Below are positions 5,546-57,125 of a stretch of DNA of 64,000 nt, in pieces (the first letter of the stretch is position 1; every line of letters begins with the position of its first letter). The stretch is taken from IMG/VR virus record IMGVR_UViG_3300028048_000039, positions 280,581 through 344,580 of that record. The stretch is one strand, 5' to 3'. The position numbers were made by a program, and so were the translations under genes. This DNA is from a virus. Lineage: Duplodnaviria > Caudoviricetes. The notes under the pieces are model-generated. The model was not told where the DNA came from, made no database searches, and was given only the letters and a program-made list of their open reading frames with translations.

Positions 5546-6007
5546 ATGTTAATTTCAGAAGAAAAGTTAAAAAATATAATAGCTGAGAGTATTGCTGAGG
5601 AGTTGGACGAGTCACTTTTTACACAAAAACTTGGTGGTGCAATTAGAAAAGGTGTAAATTGGGCTGGAAATGCCTATAATAAGACAAAAAACTTCTTAAG
5701 GAATGGATATAATGACTTTAAGAAGGGTTATGGTGTTCAACAAAACACGCAAAGACATACTAATGCTACACCTCAGCAGCAACAAACAGTTGATTTAAGT
5801 AAGCCACATCAGTTGCCAAACTTGCTTCAAAACCCAGTTGTCAAGAGACAGAGGACACGTAAGCAGCAGCCAGCACAGCAGACACAACAAAACCAAAACA
5901 CCCAGCAACCACAGCAGCCAATACAGCAAGGACCAACATTTACTAATCAAAACGATAATAAAAACTTTGGTGGCGGTTATGGAATGGATTATGGTACTGA
6001 AGAATAA
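5546..6007 (+). CDS. Gln-rich protein with putative head-targeting leader
   Basis: MLISEEKLKNIIAESIAEELDE leader, Q-rich disordered body, CTATTTAT at 5518. Confidence 0.7.
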   Translation: MLISEEKLKNIIAESIAEELDESLFTQKLGGAIRKGVNWAGNAYNKTKNFLRNGYNDFKKGYGVQQNTQRHTNATPQQQQTVDLSKPHQLPNLLQNPVVKRQRTRKQQPAQQTQQNQNTQQPQQPIQQGPTFTNQNDNKNFGGGYGMDYGTEE

Positions 6008-6059
6008 TTTTTTTAACTTATTAAACTATTTATTAACAGTAAAAAAAAAACAATGTATT

Positions 6060-6212
6060 ATGGCAAGTTCAAGGAAAGGGAGTTCTGCAGCTAAACGAGT
6101 AACATCTGTTAAACAAGTTGTTAAAAGACCATTAGCAACTAGGACCGCTGCTACAAAGAAACCACAACAAAGGAGGGTCACAAAGAGAATAATCTATAAG
6201 AGGTATATTTAA
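6060..6212 (+). CDS. 50 aa highly basic (protamine/histone-like) protein
   Basis: MASSRKGSSAAKRVTSVKQVVKRPLATRTAATKKPQQRRVTKRIIYKRYI; own CTATTTAT at 6026; terminator follows. Confidence 0.7.
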   Translation: MASSRKGSSAAKRVTSVKQVVKRPLATRTAATKKPQQRRVTKRIIYKRYI

Positions 6213-6214
6213 GA

Positions 6215-6241
6215 AATAAGGCGCAAATTCTGCGCCTTATT
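6215..6241. terminator. Bidirectional intrinsic terminator
   Basis: AATAAGGCGCA-AATTC-TGCGCCTTATT between convergent genes. Confidence 0.75.
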
Positions 6242-6566
6242 CTTTATGTATATCTATTCTAATCCTCGCCATTACAGGCTCGGCATCTTTCTTGACCTCT
6301 TCTATAAATAATTCACTCGGTAATTCAAAGGAAAAAGCTCTTGGCGGGCAATGCCAACTAACTGAATCCTTTTCCGTTGGCTTCTCGGTATATAAGGCAA
6401 GGCCAACCTCATCCCTAGCGAGGTAGCAAAAGTCCATAGTAGCTGATTTGACATTTTCTCCATCGTCTTGAAGCGCTAACAACTCAGCTAGCTCCTGTTT
6501 GCTTTTCCTAAGGTACATATTTACCTTATCATTAAATGTCTGTGGAACTTCAGTATAATAATTCAT
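6237..6566 (-). CDS. Hypothetical protein
   Basis: 109 aa ORF coupled (TAATG) to the upstream gene. Confidence 0.65.
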   Translation of the reverse strand: MNYYTEVPQTFNDKVNMYLRKSKQELAELLALQDDGENVKSATMDFCYLARDEVGLALYTEKPTEKDSVSWHCPPRAFSFELPSELFIEEVKKDAEPVMARIRIDIHKE

Positions 6567-7156
6567 TATTCAGCGGCTTTAATTTTCTTATATTTTTCCT
6601 TTTCAATGGCGTATGCAAGTTCATTTGCCTGACGAATAATGGTCGTTATGATGTTCTTGAACCCATTCTTCGTGACATCTTCTTGTTCATCGAGAGCCTT
6701 TACTGCCTCAAATTCAATTGGAGTAATCTTAACACCATTATTTAATGCTTCAAGGAGGCTTCTCTCACCACCCTTAAGTACTCCTTCGTTTTTGTCGTTA
6801 AACTTGAATAACAATCCACGGTTATTAGCTTCCCATTCATTGTCATTTTCAACAAACATAAAACGTTTTGAGAGGTGAATGATACAACAGCATTTCAATA
6901 ATGTTGGGATGTCAATGTCAAATGTTCCAGAAATCATCTTCGCCATCCTCTGTGCAATGGCAATAAACATATTGATATGCATTAGGAGAGCGCCCTTGTA
7001 CGCAACACCAGAGTCTTCGTTTAAACCACAAGGAGCGTTGGTAAGCTCTTCTCTAAGCTTATCAACATCATAAAATTTATCCAGCCCAACGCTTTCAAAA
7101 GTTTTATAAAATTTGACCCATTCGTTAATGGCTACTTCTTCTGTTAATTTTCTCAT
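6566..7156 (-). CDS. Degenerate HD-domain (YhaM-like) protein
   Basis: APC..GVAYKGALLMH and CCCIIHLSK align with APA..HH.y.GGL..H and LLHDIGK but lack the HH and D ligands. Confidence 0.55.
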   Translation of the reverse strand: MRKLTEEVAINEWVKFYKTFESVGLDKFYDVDKLREELTNAPCGLNEDSGVAYKGALLMHINMFIAIAQRMAKMISGTFDIDIPTLLKCCCIIHLSKRFMFVENDNEWEANNRGLLFKFNDKNEGVLKGGERSLLEALNNGVKITPIEFEAVKALDEQEDVTKNGFKNIITTIIRQANELAYAIEKEKYKKIKAAE

Positions 7157-7253
7157 ATCTTCACGTTTTTTCCCAATTCGATAGCAATATATAAAAAAAA
7201 TACTAGAAAAACAAACTTTTAAGACTATTTATGTAGAAAAATAGGCCTAAGAG

Positions 7254-9344
7254 ATGAGAGTTGCAATAAATGAAAACGACATAAGACGAATGGTGAGTGA
7301 GTGTGTGAGATTATTGACTGAAGACAGAGAAGGAAAGAATATAAATCTTGCAAGAAAGTTCCTTGAAACGAGGGGTATTGATGACTTAGAGAGAAGACAA
7401 GAGATACTTGATGATGTTCGTAGGGCAATACCTAACTCAAGGTTGGCAAAGTGTAAATTCTTACTTGGCGTCACAAGGATGTATGTCGATAAAGAATTAA
7501 ATGCTAGAGTTAAGGATAGATTAAATCAGACACTTGAAATTATTGCGTCAGATGCACACGTTAATGAATATGACAGTAACCTCAATGGTGAGAAAGCAAT
7601 AACACTTATAGATAGGTTTAGCACTGCAATAGCTAGTGAACTTTCAAAGGCAAAGGCAGCTTCAGATGCCCAGGAGAGAGTTAGAAATGAAAATTATAGG
7701 ATAATTCCAATAGATACCCCACAGGCTGCCGCTCAATACGGGAAGTACACCAGTTGGTGTGTTACTCATAGTAGTAGTATGTATAATCATTATACAAAGG
7801 AAGGCCTTGGACGTTTCTACTTCTGCCTCAGGAATGGTTTTGAAAGAGAACCAGAAGTTAAGGGTGATGGGTGTCCACTTGATAGTTATGGATTGTCAAT
7901 GATTGCTGTATCAGTTAATTCTGATGGTTCTGTTAACACAATTACTTGTCGCTGGAATCATGCCAATGGTGGAAACGACAATATAATGAAGGTCGGGCAA
8001 CTTGAGGACCTTCTTGGTGTAAACTTCTATAAGACATTTGTACCTTATAGTAGCCAAGAACTTCGTCAAAAGGGAGTAATTCCACTCGAAGAAATACAAC
8101 AAGAACTAGATAATGGTGCTGACCCTAATAGTCTTTTCAAGTCTATTTCTAATTTTACTAATGGATATGCTGTTGTTGAAACAAGAAGTAGTCGTAAATA
8201 CAACTTCATGTCAAAAGATAAGAAGATTCTATTTCCTGACAGGTGGTTTGATTACGCTACCGCATTTAAGAAGGGACTATCAAAGGTTACTATTAATTGG
8301 AGACGTAATATAATATCTAAGGAAGGGAAGTGTTTCATAGGTGATTTCAATGATATTGATACCTGGCCAAGAGAAATTTACGGCTTCCATGAGGGATTTG
8401 CTAGAATAACTTTCTACGGGCAAGAAGAATATGGTTGGAAGGAAAATTATGTAAATGAAAAGGGGAAACTCTTATATGGCACATTTGATGATAAGAAAGA
8501 CTGGTTTGACACCGCAAGAACATTCTCAGGCGGTTTGGGTAAGGTTAGGAAGAAAAATAAGTACAACTTCATAAAACCTAATGGTAAGTTTTTACTTAAA
8601 GTTTGGGTGAACACATACCAGAAACTTTATGTTGGTAGTAACAAGTATAATGCACTTATAAAGGTAGGAAGTAAGGGTAATATTCTCACCAGTGATAATA
8701 AAATGGTATTTAAGAATTGGTTTGATGGTTTAAAGAAAATAAGCTATATAGAACCAGGCCAATGGTCCAGAACACAAGGTCTGATAATTAAGACAAAGGG
8801 AAAGATGAATATTTTTTATCCTGCAACCGAAAGTTTTCTCTTTGGGAATAAGAAGATTAGTACTTGGCCAAAGGACATAAAATATGTTGATGATGCAAAT
8901 AGTTACTGGGGTGATAGAGTAATTATTGGTGTTCGTCAAACTGATAGAGATAAATATAAATTAATATCCTTAAAAGATAAAAAAGAATGCCCTTACCTTG
9001 TTGATAATTTTGAAAAAATTAATAATTATTTTTACTTTGTAACAAAGGATGGTGTCAAAAATATAATGCGTAAAAGCGATTTTCATATTGAACTAGATAG
9101 GTGGGTTGATAGTAAAAGCATTATAGCAATAAAAACTTGGTGGCGTGAATACTTGTTTATAAAAAATGGGGATGTTTTTGACCTTTTTGAAATCTCTAGT
9201 AATAAGCTAACAAAACCTTTGGATAATATTTCTGAAATAGAAAAAATAGAAGATGGAGAAGGAAGGGGAGATATTGCAAGAATAAAGTATAAAGATGTGG
9301 ATGGCTATTATTATCTAGATTATAGAGGTAATATACATAGATAA
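7254..9344 (+). CDS. Leader-bearing protein with YG..TSWC domain and WG-type repeats
   Basis: INENDIRRMVSECVRLLTE leader; YGKYTSWCVT...YNHY; repeats FTNGYAVV, FKKGLSKV, FHEGFARI, FSGGLGKV; CTATTTAT at 7225. Confidence 0.75.
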   Translation: MRVAINENDIRRMVSECVRLLTEDREGKNINLARKFLETRGIDDLERRQEILDDVRRAIPNSRLAKCKFLLGVTRMYVDKELNARVKDRLNQTLEIIASDAHVNEYDSNLNGEKAITLIDRFSTAIASELSKAKAASDAQERVRNENYRIIPIDTPQAAAQYGKYTSWCVTHSSSMYNHYTKEGLGRFYFCLRNGFEREPEVKGDGCPLDSYGLSMIAVSVNSDGSVNTITCRWNHANGGNDNIMKVGQLEDLLGVNFYKTFVPYSSQELRQKGVIPLEEIQQELDNGADPNSLFKSISNFTNGYAVVETRSSRKYNFMSKDKKILFPDRWFDYATAFKKGLSKVTINWRRNIISKEGKCFIGDFNDIDTWPREIYGFHEGFARITFYGQEEYGWKENYVNEKGKLLYGTFDDKKDWFDTARTFSGGLGKVRKKNKYNFIKPNGKFLLKVWVNTYQKLYVGSNKYNALIKVGSKGNILTSDNKMVFKNWFDGLKKISYIEPGQWSRTQGLIIKTKGKMNIFYPATESFLFGNKKISTWPKDIKYVDDANSYWGDRVIIGVRQTDRDKYKLISLKDKKECPYLVDNFEKINNYFYFVTKDGVKNIMRKSDFHIELDRWVDSKSIIAIKTWWREYLFIKNGDVFDLFEISSNKLTKPLDNISEIEKIEDGEGRGDIARIKYKDVDGYYYLDYRGNIHR

Positions 9345-9380
9345 TAAAAAAGGTGAGATTAATTCTCACCTTTTTTATTA
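9342..9380. terminator. Bidirectional terminator
   Basis: TAATAAAAAAGGTGAGA-TTAAT-TCTCACCTTTTTTATTA overlapping both convergent stops. Confidence 0.8.
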
Positions 9381-10600
9381 ATTTCTTTATACCACTCAGC
9401 CCTTCGCTTAGTGACGTTCCTGATATCATACTTATCTTTAACTGTTTCATAAAGATTATCTGTCATCATTTTAACATATTCAGGATGTTCAACAAGCTTC
9501 TTAATTGCTTGTGCCCAGGCTTTATGCTTTTTAGATGGGTCAATTAACATACAATTTCCTTCAGGGTCAATCTCCCCGCCAAACTTAATGAGCGGCTTTG
9601 TTCCAATTGTATATGGGCCAAACTTAGTACAAATAACGGCAGTCTTAGTAAATCCACCTTCAATGAGTTTCAATTCAGACTTGACCTCGTTAAAACTATT
9701 ACACTCAAGTGGGGCAAAGAGAACATCAAGGTTACGATAATGCATTGCAAAGTCTGAAACGTCCTTAGTCCATTCCCTCCTGTATGGTTCATCTTCAACC
9801 ATAGGCCATTGAACACCTTTCATAAACTTCATAAGGAAGTCCTTATACATAGGGGAACAAATCTTGTAATTATCGGTACAAGTCTTTTCATAGGAATACC
9901 AAACTGACTCCTCTGGCTTAATTGGCCTCTGTCCAGTCATCTTTCCGTCCTTTCCAATAATATTTACCGTACCTCTAAGGTCATAACCACAAAGTACAAT
10001 CTGAATTTTATCTAGGATGTCCTTTCCAAGTACATTTACAACACCCTTGAATTGTTCCATATCCTTTTCGTGAGCACTTCCCATAACGAAACCAAAGCGG
10101 AGGCGCTTAGACGGGTTCTTTGTTGGTTGATACTGTTCCTCAGTAGGGTCAATAGCATTTTCAAAAACAAAGACATTTTGATTATACTTCCTTATCTTCT
10201 CGGCAAAAATTGGGGTTGTTGTTGTTACATAGTCAAACCTCTTTATATTCTCAATTATCTTTTCTGGAATACCAAGCGACTTATTTGTAAGATAAAGTGG
10301 GTGCTGAGGACCAACATCCCAATTATCATCGAGGTCAAGAACTGTGGTTATATTGTTTTTCTTGCAATAATCAAGAAATGCCCAAAAGATATTCATATTA
10401 GTACAAAGTCCCTTATGAACGTGAATGATATTATATTTATCAAATGAATGAAAGTCCCCCCAATTTGGAGAATAATTGATTTCAACATCAAATTCATCGT
10501 GAAATTCCTTATCAAGATGCACATGAGGGCTTACAGAACGATATAAGCCTACACCGAAACGGTCACTTGGCACCACTAAAACACTAATCTTTTCTGCCAT
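9359..10600 (-). CDS. Glycosyltransferase (GT-B)
   Basis: GVGLYRSVSPH, LDLDDNW, VTTTT, FENAID, APLECNSFNEVKSELKLIEGG. Confidence 0.8.
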   Translation of the reverse strand: MAEKISVLVVPSDRFGVGLYRSVSPHVHLDKEFHDEFDVEINYSPNWGDFHSFDKYNIIHVHKGLCTNMNIFWAFLDYCKKNNITTVLDLDDNWDVGPQHPLYLTNKSLGIPEKIIENIKRFDYVTTTTPIFAEKIRKYNQNVFVFENAIDPTEEQYQPTKNPSKRLRFGFVMGSAHEKDMEQFKGVVNVLGKDILDKIQIVLCGYDLRGTVNIIGKDGKMTGQRPIKPEESVWYSYEKTCTDNYKICSPMYKDFLMKFMKGVQWPMVEDEPYRREWTKDVSDFAMHYRNLDVLFAPLECNSFNEVKSELKLIEGGFTKTAVICTKFGPYTIGTKPLIKFGGEIDPEGNCMLIDPSKKHKAWAQAIKKLVEHPEYVKMMTDNLYETVKDKYDIRNVTKRRAEWYKEINKKGEN

Positions 10601-10716
10601 ATTATCTAATTTTTATAAAATAATTTTCTTTATGAAGAAGATATACTCATTTTTAGAAAAAGTAAAGAGAAAAATCTATTTAATAAACTATTTATATGAA
10701 AAAATAGGGTTTTATT

Positions 10717-11088
10717 ATGAAAAAAGAGTATATAGATTTCGTTTGTGCCTTGCATGGATACCTTATTAGGTCAAAGGAAATACATTGGAACACAAATTCT
10801 AATGCAGAGCACCTATTATCTGATGACTTCCATGCTGACCTCCTTGAATGTGAGGATAAGTTTATGGAATGCTGTATGGGTATGGAGGGAAAACATTTTC
10901 AGTTAGGCAAATTACTTCCAATGGTACCTAATGCTGAAGCGTTTATACCAATGTTGAAAGAATTGGAACGTGATATTCTTGATATGAAGAAGAAATGTAC
11001 TGCACCAACTGATGGTGGCCTTAACAATATCCTTGATGATATGTTAGAGTGTGTTAATAAGTACAAATATAGAGCAACACAGAAGTAA
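10717..11088 (+). CDS. Dps/ferritin-like four-helix protein (DUF5856-like)
   Basis: KEIHWNT..AEH..DDF....EDKFMEC Dps-like pattern; CTATTTAT at 10688. Confidence 0.65.
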   Translation: MKKEYIDFVCALHGYLIRSKEIHWNTNSNAEHLLSDDFHADLLECEDKFMECCMGMEGKHFQLGKLLPMVPNAEAFIPMLKELERDILDMKKKCTAPTDGGLNNILDDMLECVNKYKYRATQK

Positions 11089-11089
11089 T

Positions 11090-11737
11090 ATGAGGAAAAC
11101 TCTAATTATAACAGAAAAACAGCTTGATGAAATATGTGGCGGTAACGGTGCATACCTAGATAATCTTGCTATAAAGCCAGATGTTGGCGGTGACTTTGCT
11201 AATAAAGTTACTACTGGTGGTGAGAATAAGGAAGGCTATTCAAAACCACTTACTGGCGACGACTTTGTTAAGGATGTTGGTGCTGCTAATAACTGGAGGT
11301 TATACACTAGAAGTACATTAAACCGTGGACCTATGGCTGGAACAATGTCCCCTGCGGTATGCGAAATGACAAAGCGTGAGTGGGAAGAGAAAATTTTAGA
11401 GGCCCATGGAAACAAGAGACTAAATGATAGAACATTTGATGGCCAAAGTTATGGCGCAGCAACAGTTGCTAAGTGTAGAATGAATAAAGCCATTAAAAAA
11501 ACGGCTTCACTGGACCCAGAAACCAGAAAAGAGGGATTAAGGACACTTAGTAAAATGAAGACAAATGGTGTTAAAAACCTTGAAGCCGCACAGGGTCTTG
11601 ATAAAATCATACAAGATAATAAGCCAGAGGGTGAAAAGATAACCTCAGCACCTAAGACATATGGAAATAATGGTGCTCATAGTAAGAAGACTCCAGGTGT
11701 ATTCCTGAACGAGCATAAAAAGAATAAAATAAAATAA
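11090..11737 (+). CDS. Hypothetical protein with leader motif
   Basis: ATG at 11090 just after the upstream stop; MRKTLIITEKQLDEI. Confidence 0.7.
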   Translation: MRKTLIITEKQLDEICGGNGAYLDNLAIKPDVGGDFANKVTTGGENKEGYSKPLTGDDFVKDVGAANNWRLYTRSTLNRGPMAGTMSPAVCEMTKREWEEKILEAHGNKRLNDRTFDGQSYGAATVAKCRMNKAIKKTASLDPETRKEGLRTLSKMKTNGVKNLEAAQGLDKIIQDNKPEGEKITSAPKTYGNNGAHSKKTPGVFLNEHKKNKIK

Positions 11738-11749
11738 AAACAATATATT

Positions 11750-12118
11750 ATGCAAACTTGTCTAGAGAAAAAAGGTATTGAAGCAAGAAATGAAACTATC
11801 GTAAGAAATGATTATCTTAAAACAGATGAATATTCTGCAACACACCCAGATGCATTAAGTGATGGTGACCCTCAGGGTAAGGGTACTGGCCATGGTGGTC
11901 ATACTTGGTCTACTCCTGATTGTACCCGTCCTACCGGTATCAGTTATGCAAACTTTGATACTGAAAATGGTGGTGGTCTGTATGACATCGAAGGAAGAAA
12001 TGGCATTGGTGGACGTAATTTCCTCATGAACATTTCAGTTTATAATAAAAATAAGGAGTATGGCCCAAACTTAGTTGATACTGCACTTAACGTAGCTGAT
12101 GGTCAGATTAGGATTTAA
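11750..12118 (+). CDS. Gly/Asp-rich hypothetical protein (probable virion protein)
   Basis: HPDALSDGDPQGKGTG; lies in a late-motif operon. Confidence 0.65.
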   Translation: MQTCLEKKGIEARNETIVRNDYLKTDEYSATHPDALSDGDPQGKGTGHGGHTWSTPDCTRPTGISYANFDTENGGGLYDIEGRNGIGGRNFLMNISVYNKNKEYGPNLVDTALNVADGQIRI

Positions 12119-12948
12119 TGAGTTTATTTAAAGACATAGCAAAGCAAACCCTACTTCTTGAACTTACAGATAGCCAAGAAAGGGATAAGGACATTGAAAA
12201 CGCAATTAATAATGTCCTTAGGGTAAGAATTGGCTATGACGATGAACAGGGTGGCAAGGGTAAAAATCTTCGTTACATTCTTCCAGTTGCATTTGGACTG
12301 AGCAAGAGTGGAAATAAGGTAATTCGTGCTTACCAACCTTCTGGTTCATCAAAACGTGGTGTCCCTAACTGGAAACTTTTCCGTATGGATAGGATTTATT
12401 CATGGGATAATGGAAAAAAGACGTTTAAGGACTATAAAGATAAACTTATTGATTTAGGTTTGAATACACATGGTGATAATAGCATGACAAAACTATTTGC
12501 AATTACACCGTTTGCCAATGATGATGTACAGGTTGCTGATACAACAACACAAATTGGGCCAAATCCAGTTGTAAAGGCTGATATTAATCCTACAAATAAA
12601 TTGCAAAATCCAACAATTAACAAAGATAAAGAGAATTTTACTCCAAGCGGAGTAATAAATCAGCAAAAACCTATTGACAAAACCGCCCCAACTTCTTACT
12701 TTAAAGATAAAGCGGAGGCTCCTGATACGAAACCAGTATATAAACAGGATGTTAATCCACAAGATGTTCAACCTACAGAGCCTAATGTTGGACCTGAGAC
12801 AGGAAAAATTGAAAGTCCAGCAACTGAACCAGTTACAAGGGATGACATTCAGAACAATGAGTTTACAAGGACTTATAGGGACCTTACTGATAGGATGAAC
12901 AATCTTTATAAAGATAATGAAGAAGAAAACGAAGAAGGAGAAGAATAG
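12118..12948 (+). CDS. Stand-alone WYL-domain protein with disordered C-terminus
   Basis: IENAINN..RVRIGY....R.ILPVAFG....VIRAY....WKLFRMDRI is the WYL signature; LLLE at the N-terminus. Confidence 0.75.
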   Translation: MSLFKDIAKQTLLLELTDSQERDKDIENAINNVLRVRIGYDDEQGGKGKNLRYILPVAFGLSKSGNKVIRAYQPSGSSKRGVPNWKLFRMDRIYSWDNGKKTFKDYKDKLIDLGLNTHGDNSMTKLFAITPFANDDVQVADTTTQIGPNPVVKADINPTNKLQNPTINKDKENFTPSGVINQQKPIDKTAPTSYFKDKAEAPDTKPVYKQDVNPQDVQPTEPNVGPETGKIESPATEPVTRDDIQNNEFTRTYRDLTDRMNNLYKDNEEENEEGEE

Positions 12949-12951
12949 AAT

Positions 12952-13554
12952 ATGGGACAACTTTCAACACAAGAAATTGCCGCTGTTTTAAATAACAGGA
13001 CAGTACAATTAACAAAACAACAAGGTAGTCAGCCAAGAAGAGCAGCACAAAGCTTAGACGAAGATGCTGCTGTTGCTAGAGGTGATAAATTCCTAGAAAC
13101 ACTTGGTTTTGATGGTGACGGTGATAGTGAATATGCTTCACATCCAGTTTCCATAAATGAAATACAAGAAGATATGTCAATTAGTCAGGAAGCTCTTAAG
13201 AAGAGCAAGATGAATCCCGCAATCAAGAACATGTTAATGGAAACAAGTAAGGTGGAGCAGTCTAAAATTACTGATAACTTCAGTGGGGACAGGCTTAACA
13301 AGATGAAGGCCCTTATGAAAGAGGACGGAAGAAAGGTAAGTTCTGCAGGTTCATCTTCAATTGACTATAGTGTCATTAAGGCGATAGTAAATGAATGTTT
13401 AAATGAATATTTTTCAAAGAATAAACTTAATGAAAGCGCAAATCTTACCGGAGTAACAATTAAAGATAATAAAATTTCATTGGTAGATGGTAAGGGAAAT
13501 GTTTTTAGAGCAAAACTTGAATTTGTTGGAAATAAAAATGACAAAAGGAAGTAG
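12952..13554 (+). CDS. Hypothetical protein
   Basis: 200 aa; internal IDYSVIKAIVNECLNE...LNES resembles the leader motif. Confidence 0.7.
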   Translation: MGQLSTQEIAAVLNNRTVQLTKQQGSQPRRAAQSLDEDAAVARGDKFLETLGFDGDGDSEYASHPVSINEIQEDMSISQEALKKSKMNPAIKNMLMETSKVEQSKITDNFSGDRLNKMKALMKEDGRKVSSAGSSSIDYSVIKAIVNECLNEYFSKNKLNESANLTGVTIKDNKISLVDGKGNVFRAKLEFVGNKNDKRK

Positions 13555-13562
13555 AAGTGAAG

Positions 13563-13585
13563 ATGGGGTGAAAAAATCACCCCAT
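13563..13585. terminator. Bidirectional terminator
   Basis: ATGGGGTGA-AAAAA-TCACCCCAT between convergent genes. Confidence 0.75.
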
Positions 13586-13590
13586 TCTTT

Positions 13591-17067: not shown

Positions 17068-17101
17068 AAATTAACTTTCCTTTTTTTTATCTTATTTTTC
17101 C

Positions 17102-34403: not shown

Positions 34404-35156
34404 TTACAATAATTTAATATTAAAGTACAAAAGGTGGTCTGAGTGCTTGTTGAGGTCATAATAATCATCAAGCATACCTTGTATTTCTTTATCAGCCTCT
34501 TCTCTGCTTACTTTTCCGCCATCTTCTCTTGAAACACATATTTTAGCATTGAAACATGCCTCTTCAACTTCCTCATCATCGTACTCATCATTGTAATCTG
34601 GGTCTATAGTGCTCATTGGTGTTGATGCTGCAGCCTTAGCGGCCTCTCTTGCCCTGTCAGCCATTGTATTGATATCATCAATATTGGCATCTTCTTTTAA
34701 GGTTTTTTTTCTTGACTTCTTGGTCTTTCTTCCTTCATAAACGCCGTCTTTTCCGTACATTAATTTTGCCTTATATGTGCGCAATGTTTCGGTTGCCATG
34801 GCGATAGGCCCCTCATGAGCATCAAGTGCTTCAAGCTTCTCAAGGTCCTTATCAAGTTTATAGTGTTCCCATGCGTCTATGTTTCCTGGTTTTACGATGT
34901 CGTTATAGACATTGTTAAGATAAAGTGCAACGTCTCGGTCACTAGCAGTTCCGTCTAATGTCTTTTTTCTTGCTTCTTCCACTTCAGGAATTCCAGCAGG
35001 AACGTAATCTGGGTCAGCTTCATCATCACCATCTTCTTTATCCATGAAGAAATATTCGTTAAGTTTTAACCCACTATCTTCTTTCAACACTCTCTTTACG
35101 CTTTCAGCAACAATTTTCCTGAGAGTGGCCTCGTTTATTTTAACTCTCTTTTTCAT
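34404..35156 (-). CDS. Acidic protein with leader motif
   Basis: MKKRVKINEATLRKIVAESVKRVLKE; internal TLKE. Confidence 0.75.
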   Translation of the reverse strand: MKKRVKINEATLRKIVAESVKRVLKEDSGLKLNEYFFMDKEDGDDEADPDYVPAGIPEVEEARKKTLDGTASDRDVALYLNNVYNDIVKPGNIDAWEHYKLDKDLEKLEALDAHEGPIAMATETLRTYKAKLMYGKDGVYEGRKTKKSRKKTLKEDANIDDINTMADRAREAAKAAASTPMSTIDPDYNDEYDDEEVEEACFNAKICVSREDGGKVSREEADKEIQGMLDDYYDLNKHSDHLLYFNIKLL

Positions 35157-35158: not shown

Positions 35159-35527
35159 TTATTTCATTTGCTGTGGATTATTCTTTTCTTGCTCTGGCTT
35201 ACGGTCTGTCATGCTCCACACTTTCTTAAGCATAATGTAGTTTTCGTCCTCAGGTGTGTCAGCTAATTCAGCCATTGCTCTCAATGACATCTTTCTAATA
35301 TCATCAATAAGTTTCCTTGCTTTCTCACTAGCATTTCCGTTTCCAGTTTCAGGTTCCACTTCCGTGGTTTCCATTGGTTCCTCGTGCTCATCACTAGGCA
35401 TAAGGTCCTCATCTCTCTCTTCATAAGGTTCATCATTGAAGTGAAGTGCCTCGTTAATAGTCTTAGGCATCTTCTTTGATAACTTCCTTATAGCAGAAAC
35501 GTTCTCTTTTAATGTATGTTTTTTCAT
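35159..35527 (-). CDS. Hypothetical protein with LKE/INE sites
   Basis: MKKHTLKENV...TINEAL; CTATTTAT at 35547-35554. Confidence 0.75.
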   Translation of the reverse strand: MKKHTLKENVSAIRKLSKKMPKTINEALHFNDEPYEERDEDLMPSDEHEEPMETTEVEPETGNGNASEKARKLIDDIRKMSLRAMAELADTPEDENYIMLKKVWSMTDRKPEQEKNNPQQMK

Positions 35528-35658
35528 AGTACTGCAATATTTTTATATAAATAGTTATAAAAATCGTTTTTTCTTGACAAAAAACCAATAGTTTCTTATA
35601 TTTTTAGAAAATGTCGACTGACATATTTATTTTTGAATAAGATTTAATATAATTAGAT

Positions 35659-45345: not shown

Positions 45346-45657
45346 ATGGCTACATTTGACAGATATTCACAATTTAGAGTTGGAAATGAAATAAAGTTAG
45401 TATATTTTGGTGAGATACCAAAGAAAACTACTGACATCATAGAATATTATAAGAAAGGAATAACGAGGCTTGACCAGCTTTCTTATCAGTATTATAATAG
45501 CCCTGATTATGGGTGGCTCATTCTTCAAGCAAACCCTCAGTATGGGGCTCTTGAATTTAATATTCCAGATGGAAGTGAGTTGAGAATACCGTACCCACTT
45601 AATACTTCACTTAGTGACTATCAAAAATCTATTGAGAATTATAAGAAATATTATTAA
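45346..45657 (+). CDS. Baseplate wedge LysM-like protein (gp53-like)
   Basis: RLDQLSYQYY.SP.YGWLILQANP...IP.G..LRIP; ATG at 45346. Confidence 0.8.
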   Translation: MATFDRYSQFRVGNEIKLVYFGEIPKKTTDIIEYYKKGITRLDQLSYQYYNSPDYGWLILQANPQYGALEFNIPDGSELRIPYPLNTSLSDYQKSIENYKKYY

Positions 45658-45672
45658 AATTGTATTTAAGAA

Positions 45673-51600: not shown

Positions 51601-52113
51601 GAAAAAGTTAGGAAAGGAAAGCCTGGTTATACATATCCTAAACGGATTGATGGTGGTGAATATAATGGGGAATGGATACTTGAAAAAGGTACTTATGTTG
51701 GGTGCTGTACCTCTGGTCCTTCAACTTGGTATAAACGTGAAGGCTCAGATTTATCTTGGACATGGTGGGGAACTGGAGGCGTTGGTGGCTCAACCTACCA
51801 AGAAACTAGTGGTTATCTTAGAGGTGCAGGCTTTAGATTAATATGGCACGGACATCTCGCAGATACAGCGAATGTTACGCCGAACATGTTAGCCCCTGGA
51901 GATATTGGCACATTCCATGTTATAGATAGCAGTGGAAGGGCAACATCACATGGAGTAATGTGGACAGGAAAAGATTGGAGAAGTGATTGTATTCAGAACA
52001 GATTAAGTTGCTATCCTGGCGGTAAAGATAGGCAGGGTGACCACTCAGTTTGTATTTGGAGGCACCCAGATTACCAGGAGCCAGGACATACAGATTTCCC
52101 TGACTTACCATAA
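45673..52113 (+). CDS. Large baseplate hub / tail-associated lysin with Amidase_3-like and CHAP/NlpC-like domains
   Basis: Hub motifs (LGIESINI, V.MMGN.QI.P.MYF.L.N.PM..G.Y.V.KV.H); TPAH/E/PHWN/VVLE amidase pattern; C..GDI..H..MW.G..W.SD..Q. Confidence 0.7.
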   Translation: MKSESFGRVRYVEPTSPQNVNGNMDGGVDDSIAFPYEDYSMAVDLSIEIADRFSCGNTCDTNSIKTYLFSSENGSLSFVGGSKVDGHYNNERVLTTNYTDVSMTNPVDNTQECLGIESINITYNSWLYPQVTIRFVDVRGATVMQQAEENYYAKDDKDWHISKLYQALFTFPYPIFTLRVKGFYGKAVKYKLACQSTDIEFDSNVGSFVITAQFVGYMFGIYADMPMTFVAIAPYMKGGKEYWQDNIDSGVFRFKDVNGTPGSAFITIPELKKKLRKIVIDEEYTSAAAEGQQVESNYDARVEELKGISEKNPFNTFTCKTFGMPKNVSYNVGIKTNLLENIKATTVIILKEGDINSFTAKVSEYYAAIKEFDKKFSTNYCVKNLGAFKYVIENYLDTPVNSKKGDFDNLLRTIVKYEDGNIHLAGKKGFFGVAPDPGDLIGCMIYKYATAATVEYDKWEKEIMDYVVATQKNTGAYSFLVLPGNLSEISNDIASEETKRLYAEKTERMKEAREKMNEIIEKKLGFRPSIKNIFDLVFAHIDTFTHCYYETLDEIRSQLESDSTKRLKSTYSVAPGFSDTEDNSEISKRSDYLPPFTAYYKYRDTDKIKELQWAGELNNGDDLSEVKFVYNLLSAAKDYYDANRKADEDEGDTTTSSLLNAGIDVSTDTFIPATPYDFAYKGKGNPYNDLKADIDSPDFLGKLFFKFALRAKEYDMPLDVNAEETPYFAGLFGKIEAKNLYRAIGDKPSIGLFKFLKAYADGDNKLADTKYFMNVITGKRDEEGLSKVWKFGADNLNDNLYTGSGNNFQYCFNKKDKQKYNFLPLDLSSINRIKSDFAKGPNLINDPDYVTLSDRENLEYKGSFEYGKPLKCGDFIVLNTGTYVDKILENALRVDKDEAKKQQKEKEEEAKKESGDNATQEPVPVNEKTKDGVYMAKRETKNFSKLFGKDYALIKDDNDKSYICDKNIIVAGHKIDEDSGETDENYNKVGTEALQSWIAAESPDLNKVFLRYPCQINDTTKSPLYFKQYDGKSLIDYQDNNLSKAFLFLMSIPVQGRNFALYGDGTIKNPKQRVSVVLKIRLLREGAIYWRQDMIKNNGSDDLNQSDPIKLPDGYAHPGPDEFFTQGNDNKETIQISTSSGYVNIKEPIDLIPGGRVSSRRETIKQLFMKWATDTSDTGFVKNNTRLRDEKFYEDPKTGKLDIKLADPALKNTTAITSLNKEAQSLQAFLRDVYFGLYTTITTLPTVRFNEAHMQYAFYDFMRALRSIYKEDVDAVEDNPVEEAKKITEAATQDPFKSKDIRLAIYMSLKSLYDKWICSACGQKTWNLADSNSDFSNFTYIDTYYHDIGYLLNVNIDTVSDWLQTLLPSSELYAQDTSFHYQGKSVFEFLAGVAENCGGLLMALPQRFGLASEDDVINMFTPQPITTNWDEDTCSFLFMYSYKPSEHLGDGEDVDMNGWSQKGDGFDLTDEEVTGELFNDDGYAIPGFGVTYAKQNQSIFKNITLTTKDAGVTEASLAATFNIAAQQEKKGPRETILYGQDIYRIYSQYSYSCGVEMMGNMQITPLMYFQLNNIPMWHGTYMVKKVTHDITAGNISTKFEGMRVNKYAIPLSDIGVISTALAPPRETTSGTLMTADGAVLSEEQPGDPNVQTPELDYTIANAISETNPLFVLTPAHSNDSKDAKKNENYWSSKVIELVKTALDGLNSGKPDNEKYLYYICNTNTPGQYNLSDARAFANKYGSEKVVSIVPHWNIGMGNRFDVFYGIDNGSTYKINKKSPYLAQCFKRGAEINKENKDFNGKRTKGGQDGAISTSGNFQAGNKNDVKDDALIWDNVTPPAVVLEMWFGDYYNKDCKDKITFTNGAVDLIPDGPNSQVFDGDGNYAVMGYWLLDLHGGRSEAAAIIVDGIMNYVSWLKGGKGAMEGVNITAQCGSQQTGDTSSFTPEGYNGEITNEKMKAVLKNFSSFTSQQYGEKYREKVRKGKPGYTYPKRIDGGEYNGEWILEKGTYVGCCTSGPSTWYKREGSDLSWTWWGTGGVGGSTYQETSGYLRGAGFRLIWHGHLADTANVTPNMLAPGDIGTFHVIDSSGRATSHGVMWTGKDWRSDCIQNRLSCYPGGKDRQGDHSVCIWRHPDYQEPGHTDFPDLP

Positions 52114-52139
52114 TATTTATATTTAAAAAAGAAGAACTT

Positions 52140-52727
52140 ATGCCAGATAATGTAAATTGTTCAGTAAGTACGACAGGAGATTTTAACCCACCAGTTGCTG
52201 GTGGTTCGTGGATGGAATCAGTTGTAAATATGGGTAATTGGTACATGGAAAATGTTTTCACTTATCACGGGGCATGTCACAATAAGTGTAGTAAAACAAT
52301 ACATAGTTCGTACTATGATTGTCCTTTGGTGCCTAATGGAAGCGTCCGTGATGATTGTAGCGGCTATGTTTATGCTTGTCTTACTCTTTTTAATAGAAAC
52401 ATATATGTATCTGGTCTTGGCACTGGCTCATTAGCACGAACATATACTAGTCAAGATACAGAAATAGCAAAGAAATTAGCAGCAAACGGTTTTACTTATA
52501 TACCATTTGACTATAATAAATTACAACGTGGAGATATTATAGCAAGTCAGAAGCACGTTGAAATAGTTGATGACCATACAAAAAATAGGTCATATTCGTG
52601 GGGAAACGTGAGAAATGGAAAATCACGTGGCGAATGCTGCATTTCTGGAACTGCGGCCCAAATTAATGGTACTTCATGTAAAATTGCATCAAATGGTTAT
52701 ACAGCAATCTGGCGTTATACTGGATAA
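52140..52727 (+). CDS. NlpC/P60-type peptidoglycan hydrolase
   Basis: RDDCSGYV, LQRGDII, HVEI, YSWG. Confidence 0.75.
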   Translation: MPDNVNCSVSTTGDFNPPVAGGSWMESVVNMGNWYMENVFTYHGACHNKCSKTIHSSYYDCPLVPNGSVRDDCSGYVYACLTLFNRNIYVSGLGTGSLARTYTSQDTEIAKKLAANGFTYIPFDYNKLQRGDIIASQKHVEIVDDHTKNRSYSWGNVRNGKSRGECCISGTAAQINGTSCKIASNGYTAIWRYTG

Positions 52728-52728
52728 A

Positions 52729-52761
52729 TTTGTTTTTCTAAAATTTTCTTTGTATGTTTGC
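52729..52761 (+). promoter_or_regulatory. Bacteroidota sigma-A-type promoter
   Basis: TTTG-N20-TATGTTTG matches the -33 TTTG / -7 TAnnTTTG consensus. Confidence 0.6.
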
Positions 52762-52767
52762 TGTGAC

Positions 52768-53349
52768 ATGAAACAGATTGCAAACATATTAACGAAGAAT
52801 AAGTTTTCAGGCAGTACATTGTATAATGTAACAGCAACTAAGGGAGGTCTTATTGAGGGGCTTCCTACATTGGTTATTGGTAACTCATTGACAAAGGACT
52901 ACTTCCCGAATTATAGTATCATTGATGCAAAGGTTAATGATGATACCTTCTGGACTTATGGTCCGAGGGAAAAGAGGGATAGATATGAAGAAAACCTAGT
53001 TAAGTTTAACAGGTATGCAGTCGATAATGCCATCAAGAACGTGAAGTATGTCTTTGTTCCAATTATAACATTGACAAAGAAGAGGTTTGATGACCTCATT
53101 ACGTTCATTGAGACAATTAGTGGGAAGACATTTATATATAATAATATGTGTTATGTCTATAAGGACGGTAGTGACGATGTGTTAGGTATATCACTTTCAG
53201 ACCTTGAGTATATTGGCTACGATATCAAGGTATTCCTTTCAAAGATTTATAATAATACTAGTTTAATTAATATTTCTTCAAAGGATATACCATTGGAAAT
53301 TAGGGACCTTTTTCAAGGAAATATGTATGTTATACCTTATATAATGTAA
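52768..53349 (+). CDS. Hypothetical protein
   Basis: ATG at 52768 just after the promoter; LPTLVIG, FWTY. Confidence 0.7.
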   Translation: MKQIANILTKNKFSGSTLYNVTATKGGLIEGLPTLVIGNSLTKDYFPNYSIIDAKVNDDTFWTYGPREKRDRYEENLVKFNRYAVDNAIKNVKYVFVPIITLTKKRFDDLITFIETISGKTFIYNNMCYVYKDGSDDVLGISLSDLEYIGYDIKVFLSKIYNNTSLINISSKDIPLEIRDLFQGNMYVIPYIM

Positions 53350-53389
53350 TTTTTTCTTATTTCACTACTATTTATGTAAAAGAATTATT

Positions 53390-53692
53390 ATGGGATTAAA
53401 ATTTGTACATAAGAGATTTCCTAAGAGGGAAGCCGTAGAGGAAAAGCCTGCGGTAGTTGTCCCTGCACCTGTAGTTAAGGAAAAGAAGGTGGAGGAAAAA
53501 CCCAAGAATAAGAAAGCAAAAAAGAGTAATAATATGATTACATTAGAACAAATCGAAGCCGCTGAAACTGCAGTTGAAGCTATTGCTCCTGAGACTGTAA
53601 AGCGTGTTAAAAAAGACCGTGGTCTTATCGAAAGAACTGAATCTTCAAAAATAATACTTACCGAAGATAATAGGCAGGTACTTAACGATTAA
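53390..53692 (+). CDS. Lys-rich hypothetical protein
   Basis: 100 aa; GLIERTE..IILTED..LLND-like end; CTATTTAT at 53368. Confidence 0.7.
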   Translation: MGLKFVHKRFPKREAVEEKPAVVVPAPVVKEKKVEEKPKNKKAKKSNNMITLEQIEAAETAVEAIAPETVKRVKKDRGLIERTESSKIILTEDNRQVLND

Positions 53693-53700
53693 TATTAGTC

Positions 53701-54591
53701 ATGTTGCTTAAAGAGGATTATAAGAAGAAATTTAGACGTTGCATATTAGAATATACTTCACTCGACAACGGACTTTACGAAGTTGGAGATGAAGACCCAA
53801 ATGCTGCACCAGCAGGTGTGCCTGGTGGCAATATGGGTGGTGACCCAGGAATGGGCAGTCCTGATGCCGGAATGGGCGGAGACCCTAATATGGGAGGTGA
53901 CCCAGGAATGGGTGGAGACCCTAATATAGGCGGAGACCCTAATATGGGAGGTGACCCAGGAATGGGTGGTGCTGCTCCAGGTGGAGACGGACAAGGCCCA
54001 GAAGGTTTCCAGCCACAGAACGTAGACCCTAATGCTGGTCTTGATGGCATGGGTTCAGACCCAAATGCTGAGAATGGTGGTGAAAATCCAGGGCCAGAAC
54101 CTGGCCCAGATGCCGCACCACAGGGACCAGATGATGAAATGCCTGAGGAAGGTGGGGAAGAAGAGGAAGTGATTGATGTTGATGAATTAACTGATACACA
54201 GGAAGAAACCGAAAAGAAAGTTGAAGCCCTCTCAAAGAAATTTGAAAAGGTTATGAATTCTCTTGACAGTATCGAGAAGCGTATTAGTGACATTGATGCT
54301 CACACCAATCAGTACCTTGGTTCTCTCAAGACCGAGTTCGAGAAGAGAAATCCAACCCCAATGCAGAGAATGACAATGCGTTCAGCAAAGTCTGCACCTT
54401 ATGGCATGACGCCTAATGAGTACATGAATAATTACGCACCAGATAATTATAGCTCTGAGAGCGATAACAATGGTGCTGACGACCCACAGTATAAGATTAC
54501 CAAGGACGATATTGATAACTTTACTGATTATTCATCAATTGCTAAGGAATTTGATGGCAAGATGGGTCTTCATGATATTTTAGGCTATTAA
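53701..54591 (+). CDS. Acidic Gly/Pro-rich protein with coiled coil (scaffold/core-like)
   Basis: MLLKE...ILEY...LYE; GGDP(N/G)M repeats; EVIDVDELT. Confidence 0.7.
   Translation: MLLKEDYKKKFRRCILEYTSLDNGLYEVGDEDPNAAPAGVPGGNMGGDPGMGSPDAGMGGDPNMGGDPGMGGDPNIGGDPNMGGDPGMGGAAPGGDGQGPEGFQPQNVDPNAGLDGMGSDPNAENGGENPGPEPGPDAAPQGPDDEMPEEGGEEEEVIDVDELTDTQEETEKKVEALSKKFEKVMNSLDSIEKRISDIDAHTNQYLGSLKTEFEKRNPTPMQRMTMRSAKSAPYGMTPNEYMNNYAPDNYSSESDNNGADDPQYKITKDDIDNFTDYSSIAKEFDGKMGLHDILGY
53836..53964 (+). repeat. 18-bp coding tandem repeat (GGDPGM/GGDPNM)
   Basis: About 7 units, e.g. GGAGGTGACCCAGGAATG and GGCGGAGACCCTAATATG. Confidence 0.85.
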
Positions 54592-54604
54592 AAGGAAAGG
54601 CAAT

Positions 54605-54640
54605 TGGGCTGCAAAAATTTTTGTGGCCCATTTTGTTTTT
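54605..54640 (+). terminator. Intrinsic terminator
   Basis: TGGGCTGCAAAA / TTTTGTGGCCCA plus T tract. Confidence 0.7.
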
Positions 54641-54708
54641 TCAAAAATTTATTTGTATATTTACTAAAAAATATTTTAATAATAATTTGTTTAAAAAAAT
54701 TTAAGATT

Positions 54709-55731
54709 ATGGGAAATTTGATTGATTTACCGAACATTAATCCTGAATCAATAGTTATTGATGGGGAAAAAACTTCTAAAAGTGTAAAAAATTCATCATT
54801 CGATGAAAAGAATTATTTGAACATTCGTTTGAATAAAGATGAAAGTGAGAAGACAATTACAATTCGCCTTCTTCCAATGGACCTTCAGACAGGTAATCCA
54901 TTTGTAAAAATTCACGTTCACAATGTTGAGGTTAATAAGAAAATGGTTGCACAGGGTGCAAAGCCATATAAATCTTATATATGCCTTCGTAAGACAGAGG
55001 ACATCGACCATGAGAAGTATGGAAGAAAGTGTCCTTATTGTGAGTTGAATTATCAGGCTTATCTTGAATCAACGAAGGAAACCGACCCAATTAAGAAACA
55101 GGAGCTTCAGAATGCTTCAATTGCAAATAGAGAGCGTGAGGCTGTCATTGTTAGATGTATTGAGAGAGGTAAGGAGGATGAAGGCGTTAAATTCTGGAAA
55201 TTTAATCTTCGTGCAGACAAGACTGACCCTTATCATCAGATTATAAAGTTGTACAACCTCCGTAAGGAAGCTGCCGAGAAGAAGGGTAAGACTGAGAATA
55301 TCCTTGACATTTATGAGGGACGTGACCTTAGTATTACCATTACCGCAGATGGTACCTCAGCACCAACAATTGTTGATGATAGTGATAGAAGTCCTCTTTC
55401 TGAGAATGCAGAACAGATGAAGGCATGGATTTATGATAAGAAAAAGTGGCAGGATGTATTTACATGCAAGCCTTATGAGTATCTTAAACTTGTTTCAGAG
55501 TTCCGCATCCCTTGGTTTGATAAGGAACATAACATCTGGGTTGACAAGGAAGAGTTTGATGGCGTACATAATGACGAAGTAAAGGAAGCAAATGATAAAA
55601 TTGCTACCGCCGAGAAACAACTCGTTATTGAAGATATGCCTGAAGCTCAGCCAGAACCAGTTGTTGAGAAGAAAGATGGCTTTATTAATTCAATAAGCAT
55701 TGAAGAGGACGAGGACGGTCTTCCATTTTAA
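54709..55731 (+). CDS. Single-stranded DNA-binding protein (gp32-like)
   Basis: IRLLP, H...C...CPYC, GRDL.I; acidic tip EEDEDGLPF; ATG at 54709. Confidence 0.85.
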   Translation: MGNLIDLPNINPESIVIDGEKTSKSVKNSSFDEKNYLNIRLNKDESEKTITIRLLPMDLQTGNPFVKIHVHNVEVNKKMVAQGAKPYKSYICLRKTEDIDHEKYGRKCPYCELNYQAYLESTKETDPIKKQELQNASIANREREAVIVRCIERGKEDEGVKFWKFNLRADKTDPYHQIIKLYNLRKEAAEKKGKTENILDIYEGRDLSITITADGTSAPTIVDDSDRSPLSENAEQMKAWIYDKKKWQDVFTCKPYEYLKLVSEFRIPWFDKEHNIWVDKEEFDGVHNDEVKEANDKIATAEKQLVIEDMPEAQPEPVVEKKDGFINSISIEEDEDGLPF

Positions 55732-55733
55732 TT

Positions 55734-56360
55734 ATGAGTCACGGAAAAATAATCTTTAAATATGGAACCATGGGAAGTGGGAAAAGTCTCCACCTTCTCG
55801 CTACCGCACATAATTTTCAGGAGCATTGCATTCCTTTTATAATACTTAAAAGTGCAGTGGACACTCGTGATGGGGAAAACGTTATACACTCTCGTGCCTT
55901 AGGGGATAGGGAGTGTATAAGCGTCCTCCCTTCTGATAACATTTTTGAAATTGTTTCTGATTATTATAAGGAAACATTTCAGGGAGTTGACCTTTTTAAG
56001 TGGATACTTGTTGATGAAGCACAATTCCTTACAGAAAGTCAGGTTGAAGAACTTGCAGCAATAGCAGATAAGTATGGTGTTAATATAATTTGCTATGGAT
56101 TGAGGACTGACTTCCAGAGCCACTTATTTCCGGGGTCTAAACGTCTCTTTGAAATTGCTGACTCAGTTGAGGAAATAAAATCCAGTTGCTACTGTGGTTG
56201 CAAGACAGTATTCAATGCGAGGGTTAATGCTAACAAGGAAATTGTTACTGACGGAGAACAAGTAGAAATTGGCGGTGATGATAAGTATGTTTCATTGTGT
56301 AGAAAATGTTATTTCAAGAAGATAGGCCATCCATTGTATAATAAGGACATGAAAAAGTAA
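55734..56360 (+). CDS. tdk: Thymidine kinase
   Basis: GTMGSGKS, VDEAQFL, YGLRTDF, LFPGS, C.CG, Y.SLCRKC. Confidence 0.95.
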   Translation: MSHGKIIFKYGTMGSGKSLHLLATAHNFQEHCIPFIILKSAVDTRDGENVIHSRALGDRECISVLPSDNIFEIVSDYYKETFQGVDLFKWILVDEAQFLTESQVEELAAIADKYGVNIICYGLRTDFQSHLFPGSKRLFEIADSVEEIKSSCYCGCKTVFNARVNANKEIVTDGEQVEIGGDDKYVSLCRKCYFKKIGHPLYNKDMKK

Positions 56361-56363
56361 GCA

Positions 56364-57125
56364 ATGAAGAAGGACGGAAAAATATTATTTGAAATGTACA
56401 CAATGGACACTATTAGATTAAATGGTGACCAGTATGTTATTTCTGAAGGGCTGATTAGGACATACCCAATTGAAAAAGTTGTTGAATGTCTTGCAAGGTT
56501 ATTTAACTTAGCGACTGATTCAAAGCTTTTACCACAAGTTGAAGCTGGTCAGTCAAAGTATAATGGCCTTATAAATATTGCTGAAGGAAATAATGACACA
56601 AAAGAAATCCTAGTGTTTGTTCCAGATTCAGAATATAATAAGGAAAATATTGATAAGTATATGAATAAGTGGGGATACTTTTGTTCATATAAACGTAAAT
56701 ACCTAAATAAAGCTGACCTCATAATCCTTCAATATGAAAAGAAGTTTGATATTGACGTAACAGACTATATTAAAAAAAGTGGGGTTATTTATCATATTGC
56801 CCCTAACAATGTAGTTGAAAAAATTATGAAGAAGGGGCTTATTCCTAAAAATTCTACATGGCAGTTTTCACACGAAGGAAGAGTTTATTGTTTCTATCAG
56901 CCATTATCAGACTTTGGTTTTAACGAATTTGTTAACGATTTTCAATATAATAAGAAAATAGGTAAAAATAATAATGGTTTTTCGTTACTTCAGATAGATG
57001 TTTCATTACTAAACAATGATGTAAAATTTTATGCGGACCCAAGGCAGATAAATGCTGTCTATACAATGGATAATATTCCTCCGCAAGCAATTAAAATAAT
57101 AAGAACAAAAAAATTTGATAATTAA
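56364..57125 (+). CDS. Tpt1/KptA-like ADP-ribosyltransferase-fold protein
   Basis: IYHIA....KIMKKGLIPK...RVY, LLQID, FY.DP, VYT..NIPP.AI. Confidence 0.6.
   Translation: MKKDGKILFEMYTMDTIRLNGDQYVISEGLIRTYPIEKVVECLARLFNLATDSKLLPQVEAGQSKYNGLINIAEGNNDTKEILVFVPDSEYNKENIDKYMNKWGYFCSYKRKYLNKADLIILQYEKKFDIDVTDYIKKSGVIYHIAPNNVVEKIMKKGLIPKNSTWQFSHEGRVYCFYQPLSDFGFNEFVNDFQYNKKIGKNNNGFSLLQIDVSLLNNDVKFYADPRQINAVYTMDNIPPQAIKIIRTKKFDN

Follow-up and report, generated by a model that had tools for sequence, protein, structure and literature searches.

The internal proteins IPI-III and Alt of phage T4 carry a capsid targeting sequence together with propeptides that are removed by the prohead protease gp21 (PMC9026906, PMC3012670), Alt being trimmed at both termini (PMC9026906). 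This protease cuts after L/I-X-E, and an Asp in the place of the Glu blocks processing and still allows targeting (PMC9026906). Head and ejection proteins of the giant phages phiKZ, 201phi2-1 and SPN3US have propeptides that are cut by gp21-like proteases, and those of phiKZ contain several redundant sites after Glu and are removed in full (PMC9026906). Here, we report a peptide tag that occurs in 16 copies in the proteins of a T4-type jumbo phage of rumen Bacteroidota, three of them encoded in the 64-kb stretch that was analysed (the window), which is the final part of the 344,580-bp IMG/VR record IMGVR_UViG_3300028048_000039 (35% G+C; CheckV completeness 93%). With a probability of roughly 0.6, we consider the tag to be a cleavable prohead-targeting or encapsulation peptide that follows the capsid-targeting principle of T4 by means of a different peptide, which is longer, helical and independent of position. 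The analysis describes a separate family of tags that are found at both ends of proteins, together with a 64/64 result at the cargo junction, the size of the family and the presence of copies in chromosomes and beside transposases.

The phage is T4-type, a Peptidase_S77 prohead protease (PF03420; match at genome 253468-254034 within the gene 253408-254139, 99.1 bits, E = 3.8e-29) and a Gp23 major capsid protein (PF07068, 210.7 bits) both being encoded, as in T4 itself. Further points of resemblance to T4 are a short peptide common to otherwise unrelated, presumably late proteins, L/I-x-Glu at the cargo junction, the use of Glu rather than Asp, the processing of Alt at both ends and a cargo set that differs among related phages. 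In contrast to the 10 residues of the T4 sequence, the tag here extends over 22-30 residues, is predicted to form an amphipathic helix and contains three sites; it is also found C-terminally, internally and two to three times per protein, and it is far more numerous, with 16 copies in the genome and about 8,000 clusters in public data. Since both length and consensus differ, homology to the targeting sequence of T4 IPIII is not claimed. The phiKZ-type phages are similar in their multiple redundant Glu sites and their paralogous families of internal proteins, but their propeptides have no single transferable motif and another cleavage motif, and the phage studied here is T4-like by capsid and protease. 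Short terminal peptides also direct proteins into other shells: the encapsulation peptides of microcompartments, which are amphipathic helices, and the cargo-loading peptides of encapsulins are located at either terminus, are connected to unrelated cargo by a linker and dock on the shell or scaffold. The tag is comparable to these as a short amphipathic helix at either terminus with a break between it and the cargo, its helix ending at the junction, but the shells are different, no protease removes the peptides of microcompartments and encapsulins, and these have no relation to phage heads. As the shell type differs, this likeness may be regarded as an analogy of principle only, and membership is not claimed. 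The occurrence of the tag in N-terminal, C-terminal, internal and multi-copy form suggests an encapsulation-type peptide rather than a leader only.

A modular peptide tag on proteins of probable late operons

The 22-residue consensus of the tag is x-I-[NTS]-E-x-x-[LI]-[KR]-x-[IM]-[IV]-x-E-[SC]-[IV]-x-x-[VL]-L-x-E, which follows the pattern of an amphipathic helix. A loose regular expression found 10 copies across the genome, and an iterated profile hidden Markov model (HMM) run against the six-frame translation of the whole genome found 16, with 23.8-36.8 bits and E-values of 1e-5 to 1e-10; the next match had 9.2 bits and was followed by noise. The same 16 copies were reproduced by a second, independent profile search (27-41 bits; next match 15). 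The three copies within the window belong to the open reading frames (ORFs) 5546, 7254 and 34404 (Table 1), and the original prediction that these ORFs open with one shared peptide is therefore upheld by significant copies of one motif. The five ORFs that had been listed as weaker copies (11090, 12118, 35159, 53701 and 56364) scored no higher than 5 bits with two profiles, and a supposed internal copy in 12952 reached 7 bits, all of which is noise. A bare [LI]-x-E within the first 10 residues is present in 12-18% of all proteins of the genome with no enrichment in late genes, and at such a background frequency, together with scores at noise level, the weaker cases are not countable.

With regard to position, 12 copies are N-terminal, three are C-terminal and one is internal, so that the leader that had been proposed proved modular but not exclusively N-terminal. 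The N-terminal copies start 2-8 residues past the Met, mostly behind basic residues. The C-terminal copies form the extreme ends of three paralogs that are encoded in tandem and measure about 815 aa each (genome 216424-223856), and the internal copy is situated C-terminal of a DUF3008 domain. An AlphaFold2 model on alignment A4 (pLDDT 91) predicted the tag to be a helix, residues 10-25, which is broken exactly at the junction Glu26/Asn27. Identical residues among the 16 copies used the same codon in 45.7% of cases, while 42.2% were expected from codon usage, and this proximity shows that selection acts on the peptide and not on the DNA; conservation of the tag at the DNA level was ruled out by the same codon analysis. 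A literature search on the motif string gave nothing relevant, this peptide was not described in the literature found on capsid-targeting-like tags in jumbo phages, and a protein-atlas search with the tag alone returned generic helices only.

The genome has 78 sites of the late-promoter-like element CTATTTAT, of which 52 are forward and 26 reverse, compared to 20 and 25 in the control that was read backwards. An ORF start lies 12-75 nt downstream of 65 of the 78 sites, and the extended consensus consists of a T-run at -17 to -13 followed by A-CTATTTAT-nnn-AAAAaxA. The element precedes the genes of the sheath, the tape-measure-like protein, the 572-aa protein in the portal position, the 1999-aa head-module protein and one core-like protein, whereas the UvsX, exonuclease and DnaB genes are not preceded by it. 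All 16 tagged genes are located in units that it leads, nine directly behind it and seven downstream in its operons, as against 88/389 of the other genes (Fisher p = 1.4e-10), and the association that had been noted in the window thus extends to the whole genome. ORF 34404, for example, comes second in a late operon and starts 2 nt downstream of 35159-35527(-), which is itself behind CTATTTAT. In the relatives described below, 18/28 tag genes are behind [CA]TATTTAT. We infer late expression of the tagged genes from the units that they share with structural genes.

When the tag was masked, seven carriers (7254, g181797, g216373, g218954, g221400, g269053 and g270116) were found to share a domain, and the nine remaining ones had no mutual similarity. 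The number of independent cargo families may consequently be put at about 10. The original prediction of unrelated carriers hence stands for these families but not for the 7/16 carriers with a domain in common. The same domain is carried by two modules of the 1999-aa head-module protein, which is encoded adjacent to the portal gene; the 7254 protein is a paralog of the first module of this protein (g242640), with 48.5% identity over 468 aa. The 7254 protein is built of a leader that ends in LLTE at residue 23, the domain paralogous to the head module and WG repeats (WG_beta_rep). Invariant residues of the shared domain are Y, C, Y, D-x-Y-G-L-S-M and R-W-N-H, and comparison of its AlphaFold2 model (pLDDT 91) with solved structures gave no clear match (Foldseek E > 1, VIA-align Z <=5.3). 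Searches of the tagged proteins against Pfam and PHROGs identified only the WG repeats, DUF3008 and a weak endolysin-like match on a degenerate carrier.

Protease-type sites in and beside the tag

Site statistics were obtained from the 310 tag copies in the best 150 metagenomic proteins, which are top-scoring matches whose closeness to the consensus is partly built in. The most informative columns of the tag are three Glu, conserved in 279/280, 275/308 and 283/292 cases with two Asp altogether. L/I/V is found two residues ahead of each Glu and a small residue behind the first two, giving the three sites L-[TN]-E↓S, [VI]-K-E↓S and L-[KN]-E↓. Glu columns with L/I/V two residues upstream match the cutting motif of T4 gp21.

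The cargo family of g270116, with 73 homologs aligned over their full length, allows the junction of tag and cargo to be located. In all 64 of the 64 members that have an N-terminal extension, [LI]-x-E ends the extension at one and the same alignment column, the cargo junction. These extensions are 4-42 residues long and of at least eight kinds, including the full tag, its first or its second half, unrelated peptides, MKPTYMKYILNE and a bare MITE. The junction Glu is invariant in alignment A4 and lies beside putative catalytic residues of the cargo. Such a pattern is that expected of a propeptide if it is removed by a gp21-type protease. At the other end of proteins, VNE, VNE and VRE stand ahead of the three C-terminal tags encoded in this genome. 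In the homolog family, [LIVM]-x-E is located on the cargo side of 11/13 C-terminal or internal tags, at a distance of 4-13 residues upstream, which brings the total to 14/16 such tags, with chance estimated at about 20% per window of residues. The g11173-like family (28 homologs) has kept the tag, decayed in a few members, and is neutral for the cleavage argument.

The head module occupies genome positions 242-258 kb and encodes, in this order, the 1999-aa multi-module protein, the 572-aa protein (portal position), four small core-like proteins, the protease, a 625-aa protein (g254269, at the scaffold position and very acidic) and the capsid protein, the labels portal and scaffold resting on position and composition only. 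The most [ILV]-N-E-rich proteins of the genome are among these: 7 sites were observed versus 0.61 expected in the portal-position protein, 6 versus 0.67 in the scaffold-position protein and 10 versus 2.15 in the 1999-aa protein, and the small core-like proteins are also rich in this motif. Enrichment was seen outside of the head module too, in 12952-13554 of the window (Table 1), in genome 213368-215464(-) (6 versus 0.75) and in genome 215473-215799(-) (3 versus 0.11). The product of 12952 is a candidate substrate of the head protease by this count, and those of the two latter ORFs are candidates for further ones.

A real modular tag is thus present in this genome, linked to the late-promoter-like element, accompanied by a T4-type protease and head module, and associated with protease-type sites whose placement follows the position of the tag. 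We infer from these features core binding, cleavage, presence in the virion, ejection and a function of the cargo. The tag would be produced late in infection as an amphipathic helix of about 16-20 residues, by which its carrier would be attached to the scaffolding core inside the T4-type prohead. The gp21-type protease would then sever the tag from the cargo at the internal [L/I/V]-x-Glu sites and at the junction of tag and cargo. Left behind in the head, the cargo would probably be delivered into the host along with the DNA; the role in host takeover or anti-defence that was originally proposed for it would be speculative.

Another explanation, which we hold to be doubtful, is that the tag has nothing to do with the capsid and is a helix for docking or oligomerisation in general. 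It would bind a common partner (nucleic acid, a membrane, or a hub protein of the phage or protein of the host) or associate with itself, and its Glu residues would serve binding. The amphipathic pattern and the predicted helix fit such a role, and so do the placement of the tag at either end, internally or several times in a protein, its presence in chromosomal genes of two Prevotellaceae isolates (see below) and a sequence for which homology to the T4 targeting sequence is not claimed. A docking helix leaves unexplained, however, the strict rule of Glu and not Asp with L/I/V two residues upstream, the [LI]-x-E that ends unrelated leaders of 4-42 aa at the cargo junction and the cargo-side site of the C-terminal tags. 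Nor does it account for the exclusive link to late units with structural genes, or for the paralogy to the site-rich head-module protein.

Distribution in related phages and bacterial chromosomes

A scan of the genome and its relatives with an HMM of the leaders had been proposed, and it revealed, in addition to the 16 copies here, copies in 10/12 large related jumbo phages (15, 3, 14, 6, 4, 1, 10, 0, 3, 8, 9 and 0, respectively). The canonical form in these relatives is M-[NK]-K-[KQ]-x-I-R-L-T-E-S-D-L-H-R-I-V-K-E-S-V-N-R-[VI]-L-[KN]-E. In the relative G005, the ortholog of the C-terminally tagged proteins of about 815 aa (36-42% identity over about 600 aa) has half a tag N-terminally and lacks a C-terminal one, from which it follows that the tag can switch ends between orthologs. 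The homologs of the 7254 protein in G005 and G006 have other leaders at the same place, and no relatives of the 34404 protein were found in IMG/VR. A search for a replacement tag in the tag-free relative G008 found no shared leader family and no excess of CTATTTAT. Since G008 is complete, the tag is not required for head assembly, and the tag system is, as judged by these genomes, an accessory of part of the clade. Homologs of the capsid protein with 46-72% identity are present on more than 596 IMG/VR contigs, the nearest records of the phage collection have only about 40% identity, and megablast with 20 kb of the window gave no match to phage records.

When 1.84 billion representatives were searched with a profile of 47 tags, 7,959 clusters matched at E <= 1e-3, of which 312 also did so at E <= 1e-10; nearly all of these tag-bearing clusters come from related jumbo phages, the cluster look-up itself having given no names or taxa. 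The best 150 metagenomic proteins mostly have 2-3 tags each, and their 310 copies comprise 128 N-terminal, 160 internal and 22 C-terminal ones. Many small proteins of this set (P0003-P0152) have 2-4 tags, between which lie modules of 60-150 residues with many acidic and aromatic side chains, and internal copies are often found behind x-[NDG]-E-S-[KR]. Some multi-tag proteins contain translated stretches of intergenic-like character, which suggests fusion of neighbouring tagged genes. These arrangements bear on a second alternative, that the tag is a processing module only, a cleavable spacer with multiple sites between the modules of polyproteins whose carriers would get to the head, or to another place where the protease is active, in some other way. 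Three [LIV]-x-E sites per tag and internal copies between modules, often behind the motif just mentioned, are compatible with such a spacer. A cleavage site needs only about three residues, however, and some homologs manage with MITE or MRKLIKE; conservation of about 20 helix residues across about 8,000 clusters where about three would suffice therefore points to a second function such as binding. As T4 moreover unites targeting and processing in one short propeptide, we regard a mere spacer as improbable.

A degenerate DNA pattern of the 15-residue core identified 100 stretches in IMG/VR. The 29 contigs examined among these are fragments or jumbo genomes, and the protease is present in 4/5 complete ones. 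The same pattern identified 21 stretches in 185,579 species genomes, nearly all in metagenome-assembled genomes of rumen Prevotellaceae/Bacteroidaceae, which may hold mis-binned phage DNA. A word-index search with residues 1-40 returned one foreign protein only. The two chromosomal copies in isolates belong to Segatella bryantii DSM 11371 and Prevotella sp. MA2016 (Table 1). In S. bryantii the DNA upstream is near-identical to that of phage copies, including the promoter element. The chromosomal copies look like recent transfers of a cassette consisting of promoter, tag and cargo, and would fit a role in the capsid only if they are expressed during infection. A feature at the level of nucleic acid (a recombination cassette, a translation-initiation region or a regulatory RNA), or chance K/E-rich N-termini, is hardly credible as an explanation of the tag: one subfamily is near-identical as DNA in promoter, 5' untranslated region and tag between phages and the S. 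bryantii chromosome, and promoter-tag cassettes do move as DNA, but the 16 copies are randomised at their synonymous sites, some copies are C-terminal or internal, and the E-values leave a clear gap to noise.

Several observations weigh against a cleavable prohead-targeting peptide. The tag and its carriers are known here from sequence, and the conserved Glu could serve the binding of a partner instead. The tag is two to three times as long as the 10-residue T4 targeting sequence, to which homology is not claimed. The complete relative G008 has no tag, and neither does G012 (48% complete). The 64/64 junction cases all come from one homologous family and are for this reason not independent. The two to three tags in a metagenomic protein, internal ones included, are more than a simple address tag needs. 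A few copies, two of them in isolates, are found in bacterial chromosomes, where there is no capsid. Furthermore, tblastn with the canonical tag had no match in 50,697 phage records, and hence no cultured phage carrying it was found.

If the tag is a capsid address as preferred here, the proteins that abundant uncultured phages of Bacteroidota carry into their hosts would be listable from sequence, 16 of them in this genome, and the roughly 8,000 tagged clusters would constitute a sequence-predictable catalogue of capsid-delivered proteins. Capsid-carried proteins are the first phage proteins to act in the infected cell, and their functions are almost all unassigned. In T4 this class includes the anti-restriction protein IPI* and the host-modifying ADP-ribosyltransferase Alt, and the T4 tag has already been used to load foreign proteins. 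A tag that works at either end would offer a handle for loading foreign proteins into phages of the present kind. Whether this route is also used by mobile elements or hosts is a question prompted by the copies on chromosomes and transposons. It is conceivable, but a long shot, that the tag acts as a universal and position-independent 'pack me' peptide of a clade of rumen and gut jumbo phages, and that its cassette has escaped onto IS1595 transposons and Prevotellaceae chromosomes. There, only infection by a phage would activate the cassette, and its products would be loaded into the phage progeny, either as stowaway products of transposons or as a 'Trojan horse' of the host against the phage.

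Features of the window and neighbouring genes

Table 1. Tagged genes, promoter elements and other features (window coordinates unless stated otherwise)
Feature	Position	Strand	Remarks
Tagged gene	5546..6007	+	153 aa, Q/N-rich basic cargo; tag encoded at 5549-5614; HMM 23.8-30 bits
CTATTTAT element of tagged gene 5546	5518..5525	+	28 nt before ATG
Tagged gene	7254..9344	+	696 aa; tag at 7263-7328; HMM 32-38 bits
CTATTTAT element of tagged gene 7254	7225..7232	+	
Tagged gene	34404..35156	-	250 aa, acidic cargo; tag at 35076-35141; HMM 35-53 bits
CTATTTAT late-promoter-like element	35547..35554	-	leads operon 35527->34404
ORF 11090	11090..11737	+	no tag copy; HMM <=5 bits; in late operon behind CTATTTAT at 10688
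ORF 12952	12952..13554	+	untagged; four [ILV]-N-E sites versus 0.21 expected (Poisson p = 7e-5)
ORF 53701	53701..54591	+	untagged; starts MLLKE↓D, resembling MKQLLKE↓DK leaders on homologs of another cargo
CTATTTAT sites in the window	367, 5518, 6026, 7225, 10688, 20920, 23341, 25043, 28012, 30114, 33781, 34372, 35547, 38444, 53368, 62100		
Loci of the shared domain	window 7254-9344; genome 181797-183932, 216424-223856, 269053-271078, 242640-248639		
Tagged 87-aa ORF, Segatella bryantii DSM 11371	L143:6932-7195		beside GH2 glycosidase
342-aa ORF with internal tag, Prevotella sp. MA2016	L147:5795-6823	-	abuts IS1595 transposase (PF12762, 146 bits)

Besides the tagged genes, the window encodes the tail sheath, the baseplate hub, the tape-measure-like protein, UvsX, the exonuclease and the DnaB helicase. 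WYL and ART folds had been suggested for ORFs of the window and received no support from Pfam or PHROGs, and no WYL domain was detected in 12118-12948 by Pfam at E <= 0.01. The sequence of 12118-12948 holds a stretch W-K-L-F-R-M-D-R-I, which we take to recall WYL domains. The late operon 10717-13554 begins with the gene 10717-11088, whose product has a DUF5856 domain (PF19174, 50.8 bits) and also matches phrog_858, annotated as a starvation-inducible regulator. In the same operon, the N-terminus of 11090, MRKTLIITEKQLDE, resembles only that of the head-module gene g251116, MKVRRIIITNKQLNE, as judged by blastp-short, and is a possible, weakly supported candidate for a short propeptide. The leader-like start of 53701 is taken as a lead only. 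Long low-complexity stretches rich in Met, Gly, Asp, Pro and Asn are found both in 53701-54591 and in the head-module protein g250556 (genome 250556-251047).

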